Below are positions 1,735-62,035 of a DNA stretch of 64,000 nucleotides, piece by piece (the stretch's first letter is position 1; each line of letters opens with the position of its first letter). Under the pieces are notes generated by a model, which ran no database searches, was not told where the DNA came from, and saw only the letters and a list, made by a program, of their open reading frames with translations. This DNA comes from Escherichia phage LorandFenyves_Bas91: sequence record PQ850614.1; one strand, given 5' to 3'. Both the position numbers and the translations under genes were made by a program.

Positions 1735-4700
1735 ATGGCGCTGTATCCAATAAAGTCGCTAGGTGCTGTAGGCGTTATCGCTGATCAGGCTCCGACAGAC
1801 TTAGCTCCTAATGCTTTCACTAATGCTATAAATGCTCGATTTGTTGAGCAGAGAGTATTTAAGACGGGGGGCAATGCCCCTCTTTCTTATGTAGACGAAG
1901 ATAAGGATTTAACCCCTCTGTCTTTCGTTTCTATGCCTTTCGATTATTATAGCGCAGGTAATAGCTTTCTTGTTGTAGGTACAGATAAGAAGTTATATAA
2001 ACTGACAGATGAAAGCTTGACTGATATTAGCCGTAAGGTTGCTACAGTCACCAAGAAGGCTTCTGCCTCAATTAAGATTTATCCAGTTGTTTCTCAGATC
2101 GTTCCTAAAGAATCAACTATCTCAATGAACTTCAATCAGACCAAGAATCTAGAGGTTTCTCTTCTCCCTGCCGATGCTAACAATACTGATCTTATTTGGG
2201 AGGTTAGTAATTCATCCTATGGAAGTGTTACGGTAGACCCTAGTGACTCCAAACTTGCTACTCTAACATCTTTTGAGAAAGAGGGTAATCTTGTAGTAAC
2301 TATCTCTACTGCCAATGAATCCGTAGTGGCTCAGATTGCTGTTAATATCATCGATGGTGATTCAGGCATCTTCTTGAGTCAAGATACTGTTACAATTCGT
2401 AAAGGAGGGACTACTACTCTCACGGCTGTTACTGGCAAAACCCCTGTAACTTGGTCCAGCAATAACGCTTCTATTGTATCTGTAACCCCTAACGCCAACT
2501 CTTTAACTGCTGTCATTACAGCGAATGGAGAAGGTAATGTAACAATCACTGCTGATAACGGGACTAAGACTGCTTCTTGTGAGATTGTTTCTATCCCTCA
2601 GATTGATAGTATCTCTTTAAGCCAGTCAGATGTTACTGTGAGTAGAGGTTCTCAGTATATTTTAACTGCCACCCTTTCTCCTGCTAACGCCCCTAATCAA
2701 AACATTACTTGGACCTCTTCTAACCCAAATATTGCAACAGTATCAGGGACTAGCACACAAGGGACAGTAAATGCTTTACTTGCTGGCTTTACTGAGATTA
2801 CAGCTACCACTGAAGAAGGTAATAGAGTTGCTGTCTGTACTGTACGTGTAGATTTAGCTGGAAGGACAATGAGAACAAGTGCTATGGCATTTGCTGCTCC
2901 TGTATCAGAGTCGGTAGAAACTCAAGATGAGGAAGTAGTAACTCCTCCTGAAAGTGAGGAAGTTGTTTATTTTGCTGAGCCTACATCTGGTATAGATACG
3001 TCAGGGATGTATGAAGGTAATAACTTCTATGACTACTCTAACGTGAATGATATTGAAGGTTTTGCAAGAGCTTCTTTACTGGCAACCCCTTTGTCATCTG
3101 TAACCTTAGATATTGTCAGCGCTTCTCTTGATGTTGGTGAAGAGATTGTCATTACAGCCACAGCTTCTCCAGAAGGTGAGTACTCTTATCAGTGGTCTGT
3201 TGATAAAACTGGTTATGTTTCTACAACTTCAGTTACTGGTAAATCTATCAAACTGGTTGCTCTTCGTAAAGGAGATATTAACGTAACATGTACTGTCAGT
3301 CAGATGACTCAGAAAGATTACGATGCTTTTGATGACTATCCTTGGTATCACGCTGTTATCTCTAACTGTGCAGTTGCTACAACTCACTATGAAACTCCTC
3401 AGGTAAAAGAATTCGAATCAGAATACTTTGTAGACCTTCCGGGGTGGGGTGAGCAAACAGTTGTTGATAATGATGGAAACCCTTCAGTCAAGAAGTTTAA
3501 CTGGAAATGTGAGAGAGTGAGATCTTTTAACAACCGTCTTTTTGCCCTGAATATGAGAGAGGCTAATGCTTCTGGTGTTACCACTAACTACCCGCTTCGT
3601 CTTCGTTGGTCTAACTTTGCCAATGAGAACAAGGCTCCTACACTGTGGGATGATTTTGCTTACGATCGTGTTGTGTCTTCGGACTTAGCTTCTAACATCG
3701 TAGGGCAGACTCAGGCTCTAGAGAATGGATATGCTGGTTACATTGATTTAGCTGACTCTAACGGCAGCTTGATTGATATCCTACCTCTTAAAGATTACTT
3801 GTTCGTTTATACAGAGTTTGAAACGTATATAGGTTCTCCGACTAATAACACGTACCAACCTCTAATGTTCAAGAAGCTCTTTAATGACTCTGGTATCCTT
3901 GCTCCTGAGTGTGTGGTTGAAGTAGAAGGTAGTCACTTCGTAGTTACTCAGAACGATGTAATCTTACACAATGGTGCAACCAAGAAGTCAATTGCATCTA
4001 ACCGTGTCAAGAACATGTTGATTAACGAGGTGTGTCTGGTTAACCCTCTAGCAACTCGAGTACACTTGCATCAGGATAAGAAAGAAGTTTGGGTTCTGTA
4101 CGTAGGTCCGGGAGAACCAAAAGAAAGCTTCGCTTGTACTAAAGCTGCTGTATGGAATTATGAGTTTGATACTTGGTCTTTCCGTACTATTCCATATGCT
4201 CAGTGTATCGGTCTTGTTGATCCTCCTGTTTTAGAAAGAGGTCCAATCTGGTCTGACTTCCAAGAAATCACTTGGGATGACCCATCTATTAAAGAACTTG
4301 TTTGGAGAAAGGATGCAACAAACTTCAGACAGAGGGTTACGATAGTAGGTTCGTTCTTGAGGGGATTCTATCAGGTGGATGTAGGTGCTCTTGACTATTT
4401 CTATGACAGGCTAAACGATGTTGTTATAGAGAAGCCTCTGGAAATGAGGTTGGAGAGGACTGGTATAGATTTTGATAATGTGACTAATGAGTGGAATCAG
4501 AAGCATATTAACAGGTTCCGGCCTCAGACAACCGGTTCAGGTATTTACATATTTGAAGCTGGTGGTAGTCAATTCTCAAATGAATATGGACACCCACACA
4601 CATCGAAGACTTATACAATTGGTGTTGACAGGCATGTCTCGGTGAGACTGAACCATCCATACCTTTTCTATAATGTTATAGATAATGATGTTAACAGTAA

Positions 4701-51013: not shown

Positions 51014-51089
51014 TGGTCGGGACGGAAGGATTCGAACCCTCGTAAGGCGAGTTAGAAGCTCGCTGCCTGTTCCACTAGACTACGCCCCG
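51014..51089 (-). tRNA. tRNA-Arg(UCU): tRNA-Arg (anticodon UCU), CCA encoded
   Basis: Hand-folded 76-nt cloverleaf. Acceptor CGGGGCG/CGTCCCG. Anticodon arm GCGAG-CTTCTAA-CTCGC. T-arm GAGGG-TTCGAAT-CCTTC. Discriminator A + CCA. Confidence 0.85.
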
Positions 51090-56552: not shown

Positions 56553-56590
56553 ATAAAAGAAAAGGCGCTACCCGTTAAGATAGCGCCTTA
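56553..56590 (-). terminator. intrinsic terminator
   Basis: Minus strand AAGGCGCTA-tcttaacgg-TAGCGCCTT followed by TTCTTTT. Confidence 0.65.
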
Positions 56591-56611: not shown

Positions 56612-57511
56612 TTATGCCGCCTGACGTGCCGCCATAATTTCAGCCGCTTTACGCAATACTTCTTCCTCTTCTGCTTTCGCCGCTTGTTCGGTACGGGTAG
56701 CAACCGTTGAAGAGATACGACCGCGCAGACTTTCTAACTTCTCCTGCATAGCTGCAACAGTCTTTTCCATTTCATCAGCATATGAATCGAGTGATTCTAA
56801 TTCCTTGCTTGATGCGTTCATCAGGTAGTTATCAGAGATCGCTACCGTTGAGGCCGTGACTTTCTTGATGAGTGAATCAAAGGACTTTTTAACCTTGCCT
56901 ACTTCTTCACTTAAGGCAATGGTGTTATCACTAGTTGCGCCGTTGCGCTCATCAGCCAGTAATTTGGCTTCAATACGGATTGCATTCAAGCGTTCAACCA
57001 AAGCGTAAATATCTTGGTTAAAATCTTCCTTGTTTTTCGCCGGAATTTGCAGGTGTGCCGCCACGTTGTCATTACAACCCTTGTAAAAGTTAGGATTATC
57101 GACTTCAATTTCACGGCCTAAAGCAAAGTTTTCGAAAGCGTTTGACCAGCGAGCGCGGTTTTGTTCCATTTTGGTTTTAATTTGCGCTTCTTTCGCGTCT
57201 TCTTTAGCTTTCGCCTCACCTTCCAGATTAATCCACTTTTTACGACCATTTGCCGCATCGGTGTTAAACTTGATAGGAGTTAAGAAAGTAATTGCGGTAG
57301 CGATAACATCCATATCACGGAAACGTTCGGTTAACAGGAAGTCAACCGCCGCCTGCAATACATCTAACTTCTTACCATTACTGCGGAAGTGCTGTAAGTG
57401 CCCTAACAGGAAGTTAGAAACATCTTGTTTGATCGCCGCGTTATTGCTACGAATGTTGTTAGCCAGTGCATTAAAACCGGATTCGTTAACCAGAGTAAAG
57501 ATTTTAGCCAT
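56612..57511 (-). CDS. early protein, helical/coiled-coil (299 aa), function unknown
   Basis: Start taken as ATG 57511 (AAAGGTG RBS). First gene downstream of the promoter-rich ORF-free tract. Confidence 0.65.
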   Translation of the reverse strand: MAKIFTLVNESGFNALANNIRSNNAAIKQDVSNFLLGHLQHFRSNGKKLDVLQAAVDFLLTERFRDMDVIATAITFLTPIKFNTDAANGRKKWINLEGEAKAKEDAKEAQIKTKMEQNRARWSNAFENFALGREIEVDNPNFYKGCNDNVAAHLQIPAKNKEDFNQDIYALVERLNAIRIEAKLLADERNGATSDNTIALSEEVGKVKKSFDSLIKKVTASTVAISDNYLMNASSKELESLDSYADEMEKTVAAMQEKLESLRGRISSTVATRTEQAAKAEEEEVLRKAAEIMAARQAA

Positions 57512-58336
57512 AATATTCACCTTTCAATTGTAAGGGCGCTATTGCCCCGCTCTCTATGAGCTTGTTTAAGTCACTATTAACTTATCTCTAACCACTCACT
57601 TTTTAAGTAGTTACAGGTAAGCGAGGCGGTCTTATCAGGAGTTAACCTTGCCGCCTCCTTATCCGTGATGTTTCATCTGGTATCTTTAATTAGTCGCTAT
57701 AAACGAAGCCGACCTGATAGCGATGATCAATCATCACAATAAGGCAGTGCGTCCGACTCTAATTAGTTACGTTATTGTAACCGTCGGCAATATCGTTTAC
57801 TTTGCTTTCGCTCTCGCCTATCCTTTTGTATCAACTCTCAATCGCTAGTCATCGCCCACTACGGGATACTATTGCGAAAGAGTCATTGACCGTCTAATGT
57901 TCCGACGTTTTATATCTTTCGGCAAGTTTACTACATAAACCGACTATGTACTTTCATCATAAGATGAATCTCAAGCCGTTCACATCGTAAACGTTCACAC
58001 TAAACCTTATTGTTAAATAGCAATTTGCCACTTTTTAACCACTCCCCGCCGCTCTCAATTGAGCGTTAATTCGTCGGGATTGCCTACCCTGATTAACTTC
58101 TTTCACCGTAGCACCGTTTTAGCGATGACCGCCGCTACCCTTAACCGTGGGCGATTAGCTTAAGTCTTTGCGTGTACTCGATGAATCCGTTTTATCAGTG
58201 GTGACGTTTCCAGTAAGGGAATGTAAGATTGTTTTCTCTGATAGTTTAGAGAATCTTACACCGTTTTATCTGGTATGTTATCTGATGGTTATTATCATCT
58301 AACATATTCAACCGATATAGGAGAATGTTTAAATTA

Positions 58337-58347
58337 TTAAAGAGCGG
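58337..58347. repeat. TTAAAGAGCGG 11-mer, copy 1
   Basis: Same 11-mer at 58568-58578 and 58987-58997. The variant TTAAAGAGCTGG is at 58879-58890. Confidence 0.6.
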
Positions 58348-58433
58348 TAAATCTGTCAGTGTGCTTTCTCACACTACGCAACTGTTAGCCGTTGTTACGC
58401 TTTCCTTAAGCGGTGATTTGCTTAAGTGTGCTC

Positions 58434-58462
58434 ATTATGAATCATGTTGTTTTCGCTGTCAA
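58434..58462 (-). promoter_or_regulatory. strong sigma70-type promoter (early)
   Basis: Minus strand TTGACA-N17-CATAAT followed by GAGCA. Near-identical core to 58920-58948. Confidence 0.65.
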
Positions 58463-58567
58463 CCACTTTTTTAATCTTTTTCGTCGTTCCCGCTATTGGG
58501 AGGATATATCAATCAGCTTTATTTGATTGAAGACTAAGCGGTGATGCTTATCTTATGATTCATATTG

Positions 58568-58578
58568 TTAAAGAGCGG
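58568..58578. repeat. TTAAAGAGCGG 11-mer, copy 2
   Basis: Exact repeat. Confidence 0.6.
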
Positions 58579-58591
58579 TTACTACATTTAC

Positions 58592-58619
58592 AGCTTAACA
58601 CATCGTGTTAGCTTGTCAA
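58592..58619 (-). promoter_or_regulatory. sigma70-type promoter candidate
   Basis: Minus strand TTGACA-N16-TAAGCT, with TG two nt upstream of the -10. Confidence 0.4.
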
Positions 58620-58878
58620 CTCTTTTTATCATCTTCTTTTAATTCCTTTCCCTTGTCTCGCGTGAATCTATGCGAAAGGGCAAGATGATAAGTCTGATTT
58701 GTCTTTTAGGAATCTAGTGCGCTTTCAAGCATTGACCATTTGAAAGTATCGAACAAATGAGGCTTATTTTGTTGCTCATCGTCCGCCTGTTCACGTATGA
58801 ATCAGGAATCAATTCTAGTGGTCAACTAAGCGCCTTATAGTAATGACGTTCCCGCCACCTGTAAGACAAATCATATTT

Positions 58879-58890
58879 TTAAAGAGCTGG
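58879..58890. repeat. TTAAAGAGCTGG variant of the 11-mer, copy 3
   Basis: One-nt insertion variant. Confidence 0.5.
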
Positions 58891-58919
58891 ATGTTTCACG
58901 TCATCGCTGACTTATGCTC

Positions 58920-58948
58920 ATTATGTATCAGGCTTTTTCTAGTGTCAA
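58920..58948 (-). promoter_or_regulatory. strong sigma70-type promoter (early)
   Basis: Minus strand TTGACA-N17-CATAAT followed by GAGCA. Confidence 0.65.
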
Positions 58949-58986
58949 TACTCTTTTTCAAGTATTTTCACTTTCTAGCCTGATTT

Positions 58987-58997
58987 TTAAAGAGCGG
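58987..58997. repeat. TTAAAGAGCGG 11-mer, copy 4
   Basis: Exact repeat, about 40 nt upstream (minus sense) of the 58943 -35 box. Confidence 0.6.
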
Positions 58998-59045
58998 GGC
59001 AATTTCTTGCCTTGTATGTTTTACATCGTACCCGATGAAATGAAG

Positions 59046-59054
59046 TATACATTA
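59046..59054 (-). promoter_or_regulatory. TAATGTATA box at the head of the ORF-free tract
   Basis: Exact 9-mer on the minus strand, between the 59230 terminator and the sigma70-type promoters. Confidence 0.4.
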
Positions 59055-59229
59055 ATCAGATGAGGTTGCAATAGGGTAAAGCAAATTATTTTAAACTTTT
59101 TTTGAAAGGTGGGAAGTATAAGAGAATGCGCGCGGGATAACATACGCAAAACAGGCTGTAAATCACTTTCTAACGTCCTGTAAGCCATTCTAACGAGCTA
59201 AAAGGGAGTAAGGTATACAATCACCTTAG

Positions 59230-59258
59230 AAAAGAAAAAAGCCTCATAGTGAGGCTTA
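59230..59258 (-). terminator. intrinsic terminator
   Basis: Minus strand AAGCCTCA-cta-TGAGGCTT followed by TTTTTCTTTT. Confidence 0.65.
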
Positions 59259-59333
59259 TAGGAAGGATTTAAAGCATCAGATAAATTATGACCATAGGCA
59301 TGACTACGGCACAATAAAGAAGAAAGATTAAGC

Positions 59334-59699
59334 CTATGGATTTACACATTGACCGTTACCGGATGCCATTTCATTCATGGACTCATCAAAGAGCGTCAAC
59401 GATGAGCGCATCAAGTGATCCACCGTAATTTGTTTACCGGTAGTTTCATTTACCAGTTGAATAGTTTTAGCGTATGATTGTACATGTTCAAAATCATCAA
59501 CATGCAAAATAATAACTTTAGGTGACTGTTTACCAGTTTCATAGTTTTCTATCAAATAGGTGCACTGTAAACCGTCAACCATATCAGGGGAGAATGTTGC
59601 AGCCTTTACACTACCCATAGCCGATAGCAGGACACCTAACAGGAGAACAACCAGAAAGAAGCCTACAACCGTTTTAACGACGAATTTAATAAACCACAT
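59334..59699 (-). CDS. membrane-anchored/exported early protein (121 aa)
   Basis: N-terminal hydrophobic anchor VVGFFLVVLLLGVLLSAMG. Confidence 0.6.
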   Translation of the reverse strand: MWFIKFVVKTVVGFFLVVLLLGVLLSAMGSVKAATFSPDMVDGLQCTYLIENYETGKQSPKVIILHVDDFEHVQSYAKTIQLVNETTGKQITVDHLMRSSLTLFDESMNEMASGNGQCVNP

Positions 59700-60073: not shown

Positions 60074-60266
60074 AATGATTAACTAGTGCCTGATAATCGT
60101 CAGATGATAACTCACCGCCTAAATAGGCAACGGTTATGCGTGCTTTGTATTCTGACAAACTGCATAGCGCGGGAGCGGATAACCTGCTTTCGCCATAACA
60201 TCCTAGCACTTCAACGATACAACCGTTTAAAGATACTGATTTATTAATCACGATATGGTTAGCCAT
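60045..60266 (-). CDS. hypothetical early protein (73 aa)
   Basis: Start moved to ATG 60266 (AAGGA RBS), which overlaps the upstream stop. Confidence 0.55.
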   Translation of the reverse strand: MANHIVINKSVSLNGCIVEVLGCYGESRLSAPALCSLSEYKARITVAYLGGELSSDDYQALVNHYEDWKRYGK

Positions 60267-60522
60267 TAATATCATCCTTAATTAGCCCATGATTGAGCAG
60301 GTTAGCCAGTGATAAGCCACCGTCAAAATAAACAGAACGAAAATCAGCGCGGGTAATTTCAAGGCCAGCAAACTTCAACCAGTTTTTAGCTGATTGAAAA
60401 TCCATTTTGCAAAAAGTAATAATAGGAACAGTAAGCTGACCATCGAGCGTATTAAACATAATAGCGGTATCGCCAATAAAACAAGAAAAGCCACTAGATA
60501 ATCTAATTTCTTTAATAGCCAT
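60259..60522 (-). CDS. hypothetical early protein (87 aa)
   Basis: GGGAG RBS. Confidence 0.55.
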   Translation of the reverse strand: MAIKEIRLSSGFSCFIGDTAIMFNTLDGQLTVPIITFCKMDFQSAKNWLKFAGLEITRADFRSVYFDGGLSLANLLNHGLIKDDING

Positions 60523-61683: not shown

Positions 61684-62035
61684 AATATAGCAAGATAGTG
61701 CGGTAATAATATACCACTTAAATAATTGTATAACTCAAACATCAAAGACGTTCGTACTTCGTACTCACAAAGGCACGCTGAAAAAGAAAGTAATAAAAGA
61801 AACAATTAAAAGAAATACAATCATCCACTTAATTAATACATATATCATTATTGCACTCATAATCATTACTATTGAAACTATTATCAACGTAACTATGGGG
61901 AGCTGAACGGTAACAATACGGTATTATTAGACCTGTTATTATCACGCCTTAACAGACCGTTATCAGAGTATAGCCTTTCTCTCACTCTTTAAAGGGGAAC
62001 TAAATAAACGGGTAGCTAATGTATTGGGTAGTATA

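Follow-up and report, generated by a model that had tools for sequence, protein, structure and literature searches.

Tandem promoters with boxA-like elements and a large conserved structured RNA in the longest intergenic region of phiEco32-like phages

Escherichia phage LorandFenyves_Bas91 (PQ850614.1) was analyzed over a stretch of 64,000 nucleotides, hereafter the window. Sequence comparison identifies it as a phiEco32-like phage (Kuravirus), and a 1.8-kb tract between its genes 125 and 124 is the equivalent of the known ~1.9-kb spacer between the same genes of phiEco32. Most depositors leave this tract without annotation, and a few place tiny open reading frames (ORFs) on either strand. We found that it comprises an array of sigma70 promoters interspersed with putative boxA elements, followed by ~0.9 kb of a large conserved structured RNA that leads into gene 124. 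The tract is bordered by the following features.

59334: end of gene 125, on the upstream side.
59239-59257, minus strand: intrinsic terminator of the gene 128-125 operon, AAGCCTCACTATGAGGCTT and then a T-run, which borders the tract upstream.
57511-57523, minus strand: ribosome-binding site of gene 124 (AAAGGTGA) and its ATG (57511), on the downstream side; the ribosome-binding site is annotated here in phages Paul and SU7.
56612-57511, minus strand: gene 124, encoding a helical product of 299 amino acids.
56562-56589, minus strand: strong intrinsic terminator just after gene 124, with a 12-bp stem followed by a U-run.

The upstream terminator had been described as a border of the tract in a first-pass annotation of the window; it was found at 59257-59239 on the minus strand, and the SU10 record carries an annotated terminator at the equivalent position. 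The unit is therefore ordered as terminator, promoters with boxA, RNA, gene 124, and terminator. Together with its flanks, the tract is 99.3% identical to that of Escherichia phage vB_EcoP-CHD5UKE1 (Kuravirus SU10; hereafter CHD5UKE1) and ~93% identical to that of phiEco32. A similar tract is present in 98 phage records, the hosts of which are all E. coli or Shigella. It was aligned across 22 phages, which are the relatives compared below. The upstream half (59230-58700) is mosaic among them, with insertions and deletions of module size, and the ~920-nt stretch from the last promoter (P3) to gene 124 shows small insertions and deletions only, except for two insertions of 21 and 11 nt in phage LAMP.

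The ~0.9 kb from P3 to gene 124 is a large conserved structured RNA. An unbiased scan for helices, in which antiparallel runs of compatible columns were collected from a non-redundant alignment of 28 sequences, gave eight helices with at least three covarying pairs under the pairing rules of the transcript, versus none in a parallel-stem null and one under the rules of the opposite strand. Since the covariation follows the transcript rules only, the constraint acts on the minus-strand transcript and not on the DNA. A model was then built by assembling the supported helices, filling the gaps with constrained RNAalifold, and discarding unsupported helices; a global RNAalifold run at full length contained some unsupported long-range pairs, which were removed helix by helix. 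The model, evaluated on alignment A1, comprises 31 helices with a total of 237 pairs and includes one long-range pseudoknot. A standard pair is formed in 98.7% of the cells, compared with 36-47% when the partners are slid by 1-3 columns and 93.4% when they are shuffled. Both sides have changed in 84 of the 237 pairs (9-13 for slid partners; mean of 38 for shuffled partners, with 0 of 500 shuffles reaching 84), and the covariation score is 0.234 (0.04-0.07 slid; 0.127 shuffled). The compensatory substitutions are also discernible by eye.

Three results are independent of the selection of helices. RNAalifold alone returns the same fold for the 122-nt subdomain 57930-57809, the minimum free energy of the single sequence is -281.8 kcal/mol (z = -9.5) with most model helices recovered, and the parallel-stem null of the scan likewise makes no use of the model. 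Divergence is 0.10 at paired and 0.09 at unpaired positions, compared with 0.25 at the four-fold sites of gene 124, so that the RNA evolves ~2.5 times more slowly. The general marks of a structured non-coding RNA are present: compensatory changes, strand specificity, stability, lack of coding potential, and purifying selection. A long non-coding RNA had been listed among the possible roles of the tract, and this role is strongly supported by the covariation, the folding stability, and the absence of a conserved ORF. In Rfam, no family matched, among them GOLLD, ROOL, OLE, HEARO, raiA, group I and II introns, RNase P, 6S and tmRNA; a permissive search (E <= 10) of 57300-59500 returned chance-level hits only, far below the gathering scores.

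The RNA is organized in three domains on the minus strand.

58404-58425, minus strand: 5' hairpin of the P3 transcript (UUAAGC-loop-GCUUAA), from the alignment.
58034-58333, minus strand: domain A (helices 3-10 and 12), closed by a 12-bp long-range helix (58333-58320/58047-58034); hairpins at 58306-58274 and 58259-58223; stacked helices 58205-58189/58097-58082, 58185-58172/58115-58102 and 58166-58163/58130-58127.
58010-58033, minus strand: invariant hairpin (helix 13) holding the boxA-like UGCUAUUUAACAA at 58022-58010.
57736-58013, minus strand: domain B (helices 14-23), multi-branched; closing helices 58013-58004/57745-57736, 58000-57996/57751-57747 and 57993-57982/57805-57794; branches 57978-57941, 57926-57921/57818-57813, 57907-57891, 57890-57830 and 57787-57753.
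58147-58155, minus strand: 5' arm of the pseudoknot (helix 11), AUCGCCCAC, in the end loop of domain A.
57851-57859, minus strand: 3' arm of the pseudoknot (helix 11), GUGGGCGAU, in the end loop of domain B.
57533-57735, minus strand: domain C (57735-57667, with hairpin 57714-57692) and four to five 3' hairpins (helices 24-31).

The 5' hairpin is followed by two small hairpins and then by the last boxA copy. The divergent phages NC-B, TH34 and EcoN5 have a different hairpin at 58425-58404, CACUAG-GCAA-CUAGUG, with a GCAA loop. In domain A, the hairpin at 58223-58259 noted in the first-pass annotation is borne out by six covarying pairs (helices 6-7), and in domain B all six pairs of helix 57926-57921/57818-57813 covary. 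Domains A and B are connected by the 9-bp pseudoknot, which is 100% paired and has undergone two independent compensatory double changes, in NC-B and TH34. In LAMP (positions 996-1148 of its locus), most of the subdomain 57930-57809 is replaced by unrelated sequence with the 21- and 11-nt insertions. Despite the replacement of the surrounding helices, the outer helix is still present in LAMP, as is the pseudoknot loop UCCCGUAGUGGGCGAU, and this natural variant points to the pseudoknot as the essential part.

The 3' hairpins end at 57533, just ahead of the ribosome-binding site of gene 124. Here, alternative pairings of an AGGAG sequence had been proposed, either with CTCCT or within a helix GAGGCGG/CCGCCTC (57657-57623). 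The latter helix is supported by three covarying pairs (helix 26), whereas the AGGAG/CTCCT pairing shows no covariation. Mutually exclusive hairpins, as had been suggested, are not supported: around 57623-57661, both helices form part of a single nested hairpin that is backed by covariation (57661-57618; helices 26-27). As for the CCGTTTTAT repeats, both copies, at 58187 and 58261, are present, but only the copy at 58261 and a variant at 57906 are well conserved. A reading of AUAAAACGG as a repeated protein-binding motif was rejected; only two of its four copies are conserved, and these stand in differing structural settings.

The tract might encode small proteins missed by gene callers, as 10-11 tiny ORFs are annotated in CHD5UKE1 and a single ORF each in SU7 (SU7_114), Paul (Paul_130) and MN05 (MN05_00120). 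These annotated ORFs, however, vary between records and lie on both strands. In agreement with the first-pass annotation, 57534-59333 holds no ORF of at least 60 amino acids; the longest has 55 (59021-59188, minus strand) and the next 49. The transcribed strand has no ORF of at least 25 amino acids in 58430-57512, and in the rest of the tract only a minority of 20 relatives keep the small ORFs intact, none of which has a convincing Shine-Dalgarno sequence. Moreover, the substitutions fall into base-pair covariation. We therefore give almost no credence to a protein-coding role.

Upstream of the RNA, promoters and boxA-like elements alternate. The positions of the boxA copies are given relative to start points placed by consensus spacing.

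59044-59071, minus strand: P0, a weaker sigma70-like promoter, TTGCAA-16-TATACT, the -10 element of which overlaps an exact copy of the motif of the phage sigma factor gp36.
58984-58996, minus strand: putative boxA copy 0, CGCTCTTTAAAAA, ~+41 from the P0 start.
58920-58948, minus strand: P1, TTGACA-17-CATAAT (11/12 matches), with an A-rich upstream element.
58876-58888, minus strand: putative boxA copy 1, AGCTCTTTAAAAA, ~+25 from the P1 start.
58592-58619, minus strand: P2, TTGACA-16-TAAGCT, with a TGn extended -10 element.
58565-58577, minus strand: putative boxA copy 2, CGCTCTTTAACAA, ~+8 from the P2 start (13/13 to the search pattern).
58434-58462, minus strand: P3, TTGACA-17-CATAAT (11/12 matches), the promoter nearest to the structured RNA, found in 22 of 22 relatives.
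58334-58346, minus strand: putative boxA copy 3, CGCTCTTTAATAA followed by TTTA, ~+81 from the P3 start.

The three strong leftward promoters, two of the type TTGACA-17-CATAAT and one TTGACA-16-TAAGCT, are located where the first-pass annotation had placed them and are conserved in the relatives. Loose promoter matches are not enriched (19, versus 19.1 expected from shuffles). The strong sites are credible because they are conserved across the 22 relatives, each of which has 3-4 such promoters, with three strong sites and a weaker P0-type site recurring. Three sigma70 promoters in this spacer have already been reported for SU10 and phiEco32 (PMC4281155). P1 and the T7 promoter A1 have 15 nt in common (aaaaagagtattgac), spanning the upstream element and the -35 region. 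Partial repeats of the promoter unit are present (repeat families D8 and D14), in line with the degenerate copies that had been described. The phage-sigma-like box is likewise present as an exact TAATGTATA copy at 59046-59054 on the minus strand, although the motif occurs in only 4 of the 22 relatives; others have TTGACA-16-TAATAT or TATAAT upstream instead. The gp36 consensus is a single element, tAATGTAtA, 6-8 bp before the start and conserved ahead of middle or late genes, and six gp36 promoters have been mapped upstream of genes 6, 13, 26, 40, 58 and 68 (PMC4331800); the site at 59046-59054 is not among them.

Several further observations concern the promoter half. A conserved hairpin-like sequence (CCCTTTCGC...GCGAGACAAGGG; 58620-58700, minus strand) lies just upstream of P2, within transcripts started at P1. 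A block at 59181-59240, just past the gene 125 terminator (TTTTTTCTTTTCTAAGGTGATTGTATACC...), shows 94% conservation among the 22 phages amid the mosaic region and includes ATTGTATA, which has one mismatch to the phage-sigma motif AATGTATA. Phages ECBP2, KBNP1711, MN05, XT32 and TH34 have insertions of ~120-150 nt between the positions of P2 and P3. The array evidently grows and shrinks by whole promoter-boxA modules, the number of which differs among the tracts of these five phages.

Four copies of TTAAAGAGC(T)GG had been listed as a repeat and were confirmed at 58337, 58568, 58879 and 58987. On the transcribed (minus) strand they read CC(A)GCUCUUUAA, that is, they have the form of boxA elements (CGCUCUUUAACAA). 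Judged by its sequence, the repeated 9-11-mer corresponds to boxA, the signal for antitermination by Nus factors, an identity that the first-pass annotation had missed. The tract holds four exact copies of the core GCUCUUUAA, one of which is a 13/13 match to CGCUCUUUAACAA. The sequence GCTCTTTAA has five exact matches in 64 kb, versus 0.76 expected, and four of these lie within 660 bp (58337-58995), all on the minus strand; the fifth lies within a gene of 1005 amino acids. In each of the 22 relatives, the transcribed strand holds boxA-like copies (4-6 exact GCTCTTTAA, 5-8 including near-matches), which alternate with their 3-4 promoters, and an exact copy is found at most 160 nt downstream of 74 of the 80 promoters predicted in the 22 phages.

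The 13-mer of copy 2, CGCTCTTTAACAA, is identical to the boxA of the T7 early leader, downstream of promoter A3. The copy after P3 reads CCGCUCUUUAAUAAUUUA in the window and GCUCUUUAACAAUUUA in about half of the relatives, and the latter equals the boxA-spacer of the E. coli rrn operons over 16 consecutive nucleotides. The published sequences are UGCUCUUUA for the E. coli rrn boxA, ugcucuuuaacaauuua for the rrn boxA-spacer, and CGCUCUUA for the lambda boxA (PMC2724277). The spacers behind the phage copies are AAAAUCAGG, AAAAUAUGA, ACAAUAUGA and AUAAUUUAA; that of copy 3 holds AAUUUA, as in rrn, whereas the remaining copies have AAU without AUU, the element recognized by NusA. The boxA-like UGCUAUUUAACAA inside the RNA is half buried in the hairpin of helix 13 and is probably not a working boxA, since it has the same C-to-A change as the defective lambda mutant boxA16 (PMC2724277). 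In two boxA searches, no boxA was found after the promoter upstream of gene 128 (61503-61476), which runs directly into a coding gene. This observation fits a role of boxA as a protector of long untranslated transcripts, and boxA protects long untranslated RNAs (rRNA and CRISPR arrays) from Rho (PMC7665894). An rrn-like processing stem was tried as a candidate, in which 59003-58988 would pair with 57556-57541 (16 nt, boxA/anti-boxA), and failed in the relatives: in phiEco32, SU10 and Paul, among others, the 5' context differs although the 3' site is unchanged, and in further relatives the 3' site is changed to GCGAGCGG without compensation.

An element acting at the level of DNA has to be weighed against these results, be it an origin of replication, a signal for packaging or entry, or a set of promoters soaking up RNA polymerase or a regulator, with the repeats as protein sites on the DNA. 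The tract is long, ORF-free, repeat-rich and slightly AT-rich (GC 0.36-0.39 in 58200-59400), and is located ~3-4.6 kb from the inferred right genome end, as such an element might be. The T7 promoters A1-A3 serve transcription-driven genome entry, and a comparable entry role may apply to the promoters described here. On the other hand, eight helices have at least three covarying pairs under the transcript rules versus one under the opposite-strand rules, and the boxA repeats all have one orientation, each downstream of a promoter. The cumulative GC skew turns near 61,900 and not at the tract, and a search of the tract for DnaA boxes found none. Given the strand-specific pairing and the lack of a skew turn and of DnaA boxes in the tract, the replication or packaging cis-element suggested in the first-pass annotation is not upheld. 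Since each promoter with its boxA feeds the same downstream RNA and operon, the arrangement fits productive transcription, and no result argues for an array that titrates RNA polymerase. A DNA-level role therefore appears very unlikely.

[quoted passage not shown] Since the genome ends are joined inside the 64-kb window, the window derives from a permuted or circularised assembly. Upstream of the tract, the products of 59334-59699 (121 amino acids) and 60259-60522 (87 amino acids) are labelled 'terminase' and 'polymerase' in RefSeq and PHROGs. These labels are probably artefacts that have spread between records, as the products are far too small and lack Pfam support.

From the observed elements, their order, orientation and conservation, and the RNA fold, we propose a mechanism of two layers, in which the start points, Nus loading, Rho resistance, and the abundance and role of the RNA are predictions. 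In the first layer (58430-59071), host sigma70 polymerase would start at the three strong and one weaker leftward promoters, P0-P3, in the first minutes of infection, and each start would be followed by boxA within ~8-80 nt. Host NusB/S10 would bind the emerging boxA and, with NusA, NusG and SuhB, form a Rho-resistant elongation complex, as in the rrn operons. Rho resistance would be needed because the next 0.9-1.5 kb is untranslated and has no ribosome cover. The tethered boxA may also aid folding of the RNA, as proposed for rRNA (PMC7665894). Transcription would then enter gene 124 and continue up to the conserved terminator at 56589-56562. The second layer (~58427 to 57533) would be the three-domain leader RNA with its 31 helices and domain A-B pseudoknot, which on this proposal is not a spacer. 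Co-transcribed with gene 124, it would appear before any other product of infection and probably in the largest amount, and may either be freed by processing or work as an RNA-protein particle while the host is taken over.

We consider it reasonably probable, at about 60%, that early transcription of the phage is controlled mainly from this tract, which would consist of the promoter-boxA layer and a ~0.9-kb RNA gene in its own right, embedded as an operon leader. A function of the RNA itself is favored because its size, inter-domain tertiary contact, constrained loops, and multi-promoter drive go far beyond the needs of known cis-acting leaders. More tentatively, the RNA may represent a new class among large functional RNAs, multi-domain and pseudoknotted, that would serve host takeover as a scaffold for a trans-acting ribonucleoprotein, as a decoy or as a ribozyme and would be made via the rRNA-type machinery of the host (tandem promoters with boxA/Nus antitermination and chaperoning).

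Several points weigh against the reading of the tract as a control region with its own RNA gene. The helix set was derived from the same alignment as the counts, so that the contrast with the controls is somewhat inflated, although not eightfold, and the phages are mosaic, with some compensatory changes inherited in blocks, which leaves fewer independent events than cells. The start points of P0-P3 are predicted from consensus spacing, and boxA copy 2 lies just ~8 nt from its predicted start. The rrn-type boxA complexes act on Rho-dependent and not on intrinsic terminators (PMC2724277), so that boxA alone does not explain read-through of the terminator behind gene 124. In addition, no 3' end proper to the RNA can be recognised, and the transcript continues straight into the ribosome-binding site of gene 124, which also fits a purely cis-acting leader.

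Such a leader, in the layout of lambda pL-nutL-N-tL1, would act on its own polymerase or message and allow read-through of the terminator behind gene 124 into ~55 downstream early genes. It might offer a docking site to an antiterminator (gp124 perhaps), act in the manner of the put RNA of HK022, stabilise the message, or control translation. The context of gene 124 is in line with this possibility. At every locus examined, gene 124 is directly downstream of the RNA, and the interval from P0 to gene 124 was found to hold no minus-strand terminator. Gene 124 has homologues only in the E. coli/Shigella phage group that also has the tract, with 97 records versus 98, the extra record being a partial match in phage PJNS034. 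The unit is framed by conserved intrinsic terminators, and that at 56562-56589 is kept in every relative with enough flanking sequence, including one that is 78% identical; it is unannotated in the corresponding regions of phiEco32, SU10 and CHD5UKE1. No promoter-like site is found between genes 124 and 123, so that genes 123 onward (~55 early genes), which follow the terminator, seem to need read-through. In the related phage 7-11, an undefined antitermination strategy was called likely by its authors (PMC8948821).

However, an RNA of 0.9 kb with 31 helices, a pseudoknot, and constrained loops far exceeds what cis antitermination needs. Known cis antitermination RNAs measure ~15-70 nt, with ~15 nt for lambda boxB and ~70 nt for put. 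For gp124 and its neighbors, no informative Pfam or PHROG hit was obtained and no N-like protein was found by these searches; gp124 has no arginine-rich motif and no hit to an RNA-binding family, and its single-sequence AlphaFold model is too poor for use (predicted local distance difference test score, pLDDT, 51). None of the covarying helices occludes the gene 124 ribosome-binding site. Since rrn-type boxA complexes do not overcome intrinsic terminators, an extra factor is needed for read-through whether the RNA has its own function or acts only in cis. In our judgment, a purely cis-acting leader is a serious but rather doubtful explanation, and we retain the control region with its own RNA gene as the preferred one.

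The closest parallels to the promoter-boxA layer are the rrn leader of E. coli and the early region of T7. As in the rrn leader, tandem strong sigma70 promoters with A-rich upstream elements precede a boxA that matches in its core and, over the 16 identical nt of GCUCUUUAACAAUUUA in several relatives, also in its spacer, and a long untranslated and highly folded RNA follows, which in rrn the Nus factors shield from Rho and may help to fold (PMC7665894). The phage RNA has no similarity to rRNA in sequence or by model, however, and precedes protein-coding genes; moreover, the phage has one boxA per promoter, whereas rrn has one shared copy, and no rrn-like processing stem is supported. The T7 early region (A1-A3, boxA, the RNase III site R0.3, and gene 0.3) likewise has three strong host-type promoters near the genome end that serve early genes, the identical 13-mer CGCTCTTTAACAA downstream, and the 15 nt that A1 has in common with P1. 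T7 differs in having a single boxA, a leader of ~175-430 nt, and no conserved multi-domain RNA of 0.9 kb. The architectures are alike without overall homology, and the phage cluster is set back ~3 kb from the genome end, with a short first operon and the terminator of that operon in between.

The lambda nutL/nutR system with N has the same order of promoter, boxA, first gene, and terminator, and the boxA cores agree, including the additional U of the consensus. Hairpins lie near the boxA copies at 58425-58404 and 58546-58531 (repeat D14). No boxB or N homologue was identified, gp124 is a helical protein of 299 amino acids without an arginine-rich motif, and the phage RNA between boxA and the gene is ~50 times the size of a nut site. 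In the boxA-protected CRISPR arrays of Salmonella and many other bacteria, boxA at the start of a long non-coding transcript acts against Rho in a similar way (PMC7665894), but the phage product is one large folded RNA with a downstream operon, and has no repeat-spacer array. The promoters, then, are already known. The boxA array belongs to a known kind, of which it is a new example, and its nearest counterparts are those of T7 and rrn.

The leader RNA itself is a new family without a detectable relative. The large ornate non-coding RNAs GOLLD, ROOL, OLE, HEARO and raiA have no known function, and GOLLD and ROOL are phage-associated. Compared with these families, the leader RNA falls in the same size class (~0.6-0.9 kb) and likewise has many helices and long-range tertiary pairing. 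It differs from them in lacking an Rfam match, in being embedded as a 5' operon leader behind boxA, in occurring only in Kuravirus-like phages of E. coli and Shigella, and in not lying by tRNA genes, the only tRNA being 6.4 kb away. This tRNA-Arg(TCT) (51014-51089, minus strand) is the sole tRNA of the window and its sole match at Rfam gathering scores.

Outside the Kuravirus-like group, the same promoter-boxA modules are found in PJNS034 (PP391266.1), an unrelated 65.7-kb coliphage, within a 1.8-kb divergent intergenic region (2873-4694). There are three boxA copies, one within a 23-nt stretch identical to 58577-58555 of the window. The leader of PJNS034 (~480 nt) and its first gene are different, and a covariance model of the subdomain 57930-57809 found no match in this phage. 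Since PJNS034 has the cassette with a different leader, the promoter-boxA cassette and the RNA are separable modules, and the cassette looks like an exchangeable module of early control. A scan of metagenomes with a 24-mer found eight further Kuravirus-like contigs, and a search of 5,426 E. coli genomes found no relative of the RNA. An 18-mer scan of viral contigs returned only known phages and chance matches. The 18-mer AGATTTACCGCTCTTTAA also occurs in nine unrelated IMG/VR contigs, apparently inside coding sequence to judge from the flanks, and these copies are taken as chance matches and not as relatives of the RNA. The prophage small RNA svsR was considered as a link to Kuravirus and set aside; the svsR paper reports no base-pairing target. 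The searchable literature, which did not cover the two primary phiEco32 papers (PMC2587145, PMC3275717), yielded no link between phiEco32-like phages and boxA or antitermination elements, no description of a structured RNA, and no transcriptome of a Kuravirus infection.

phiEco32 is a model for the control of transcription by phages, with its sigma factor gp36 and the sigma70 inhibitor gp79, and yet its longest intergenic region is mostly unannotated. The boxA array offers a testable lead on escape from early termination, a question that has been raised in the literature for the related phage 7-11. The covariation support of the leader RNA is comparable to that of accepted large non-coding RNA classes, and the RNA has no known relative. 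Annotation pipelines should drop the spurious ORF calls in the tract, and since these phages are used in therapy cocktails (e.g. ES17, SU10, and the Bas collection), the tract should not be regarded as disposable in engineering. The phages are lytic, and their host range includes laboratory and clinical E. coli, which makes the RNA more tractable than most large non-coding RNAs found in metagenomes. Should it indeed be a new RNA class, E. coli phages that are open to genetic work would have their first 'ornate' large RNA.

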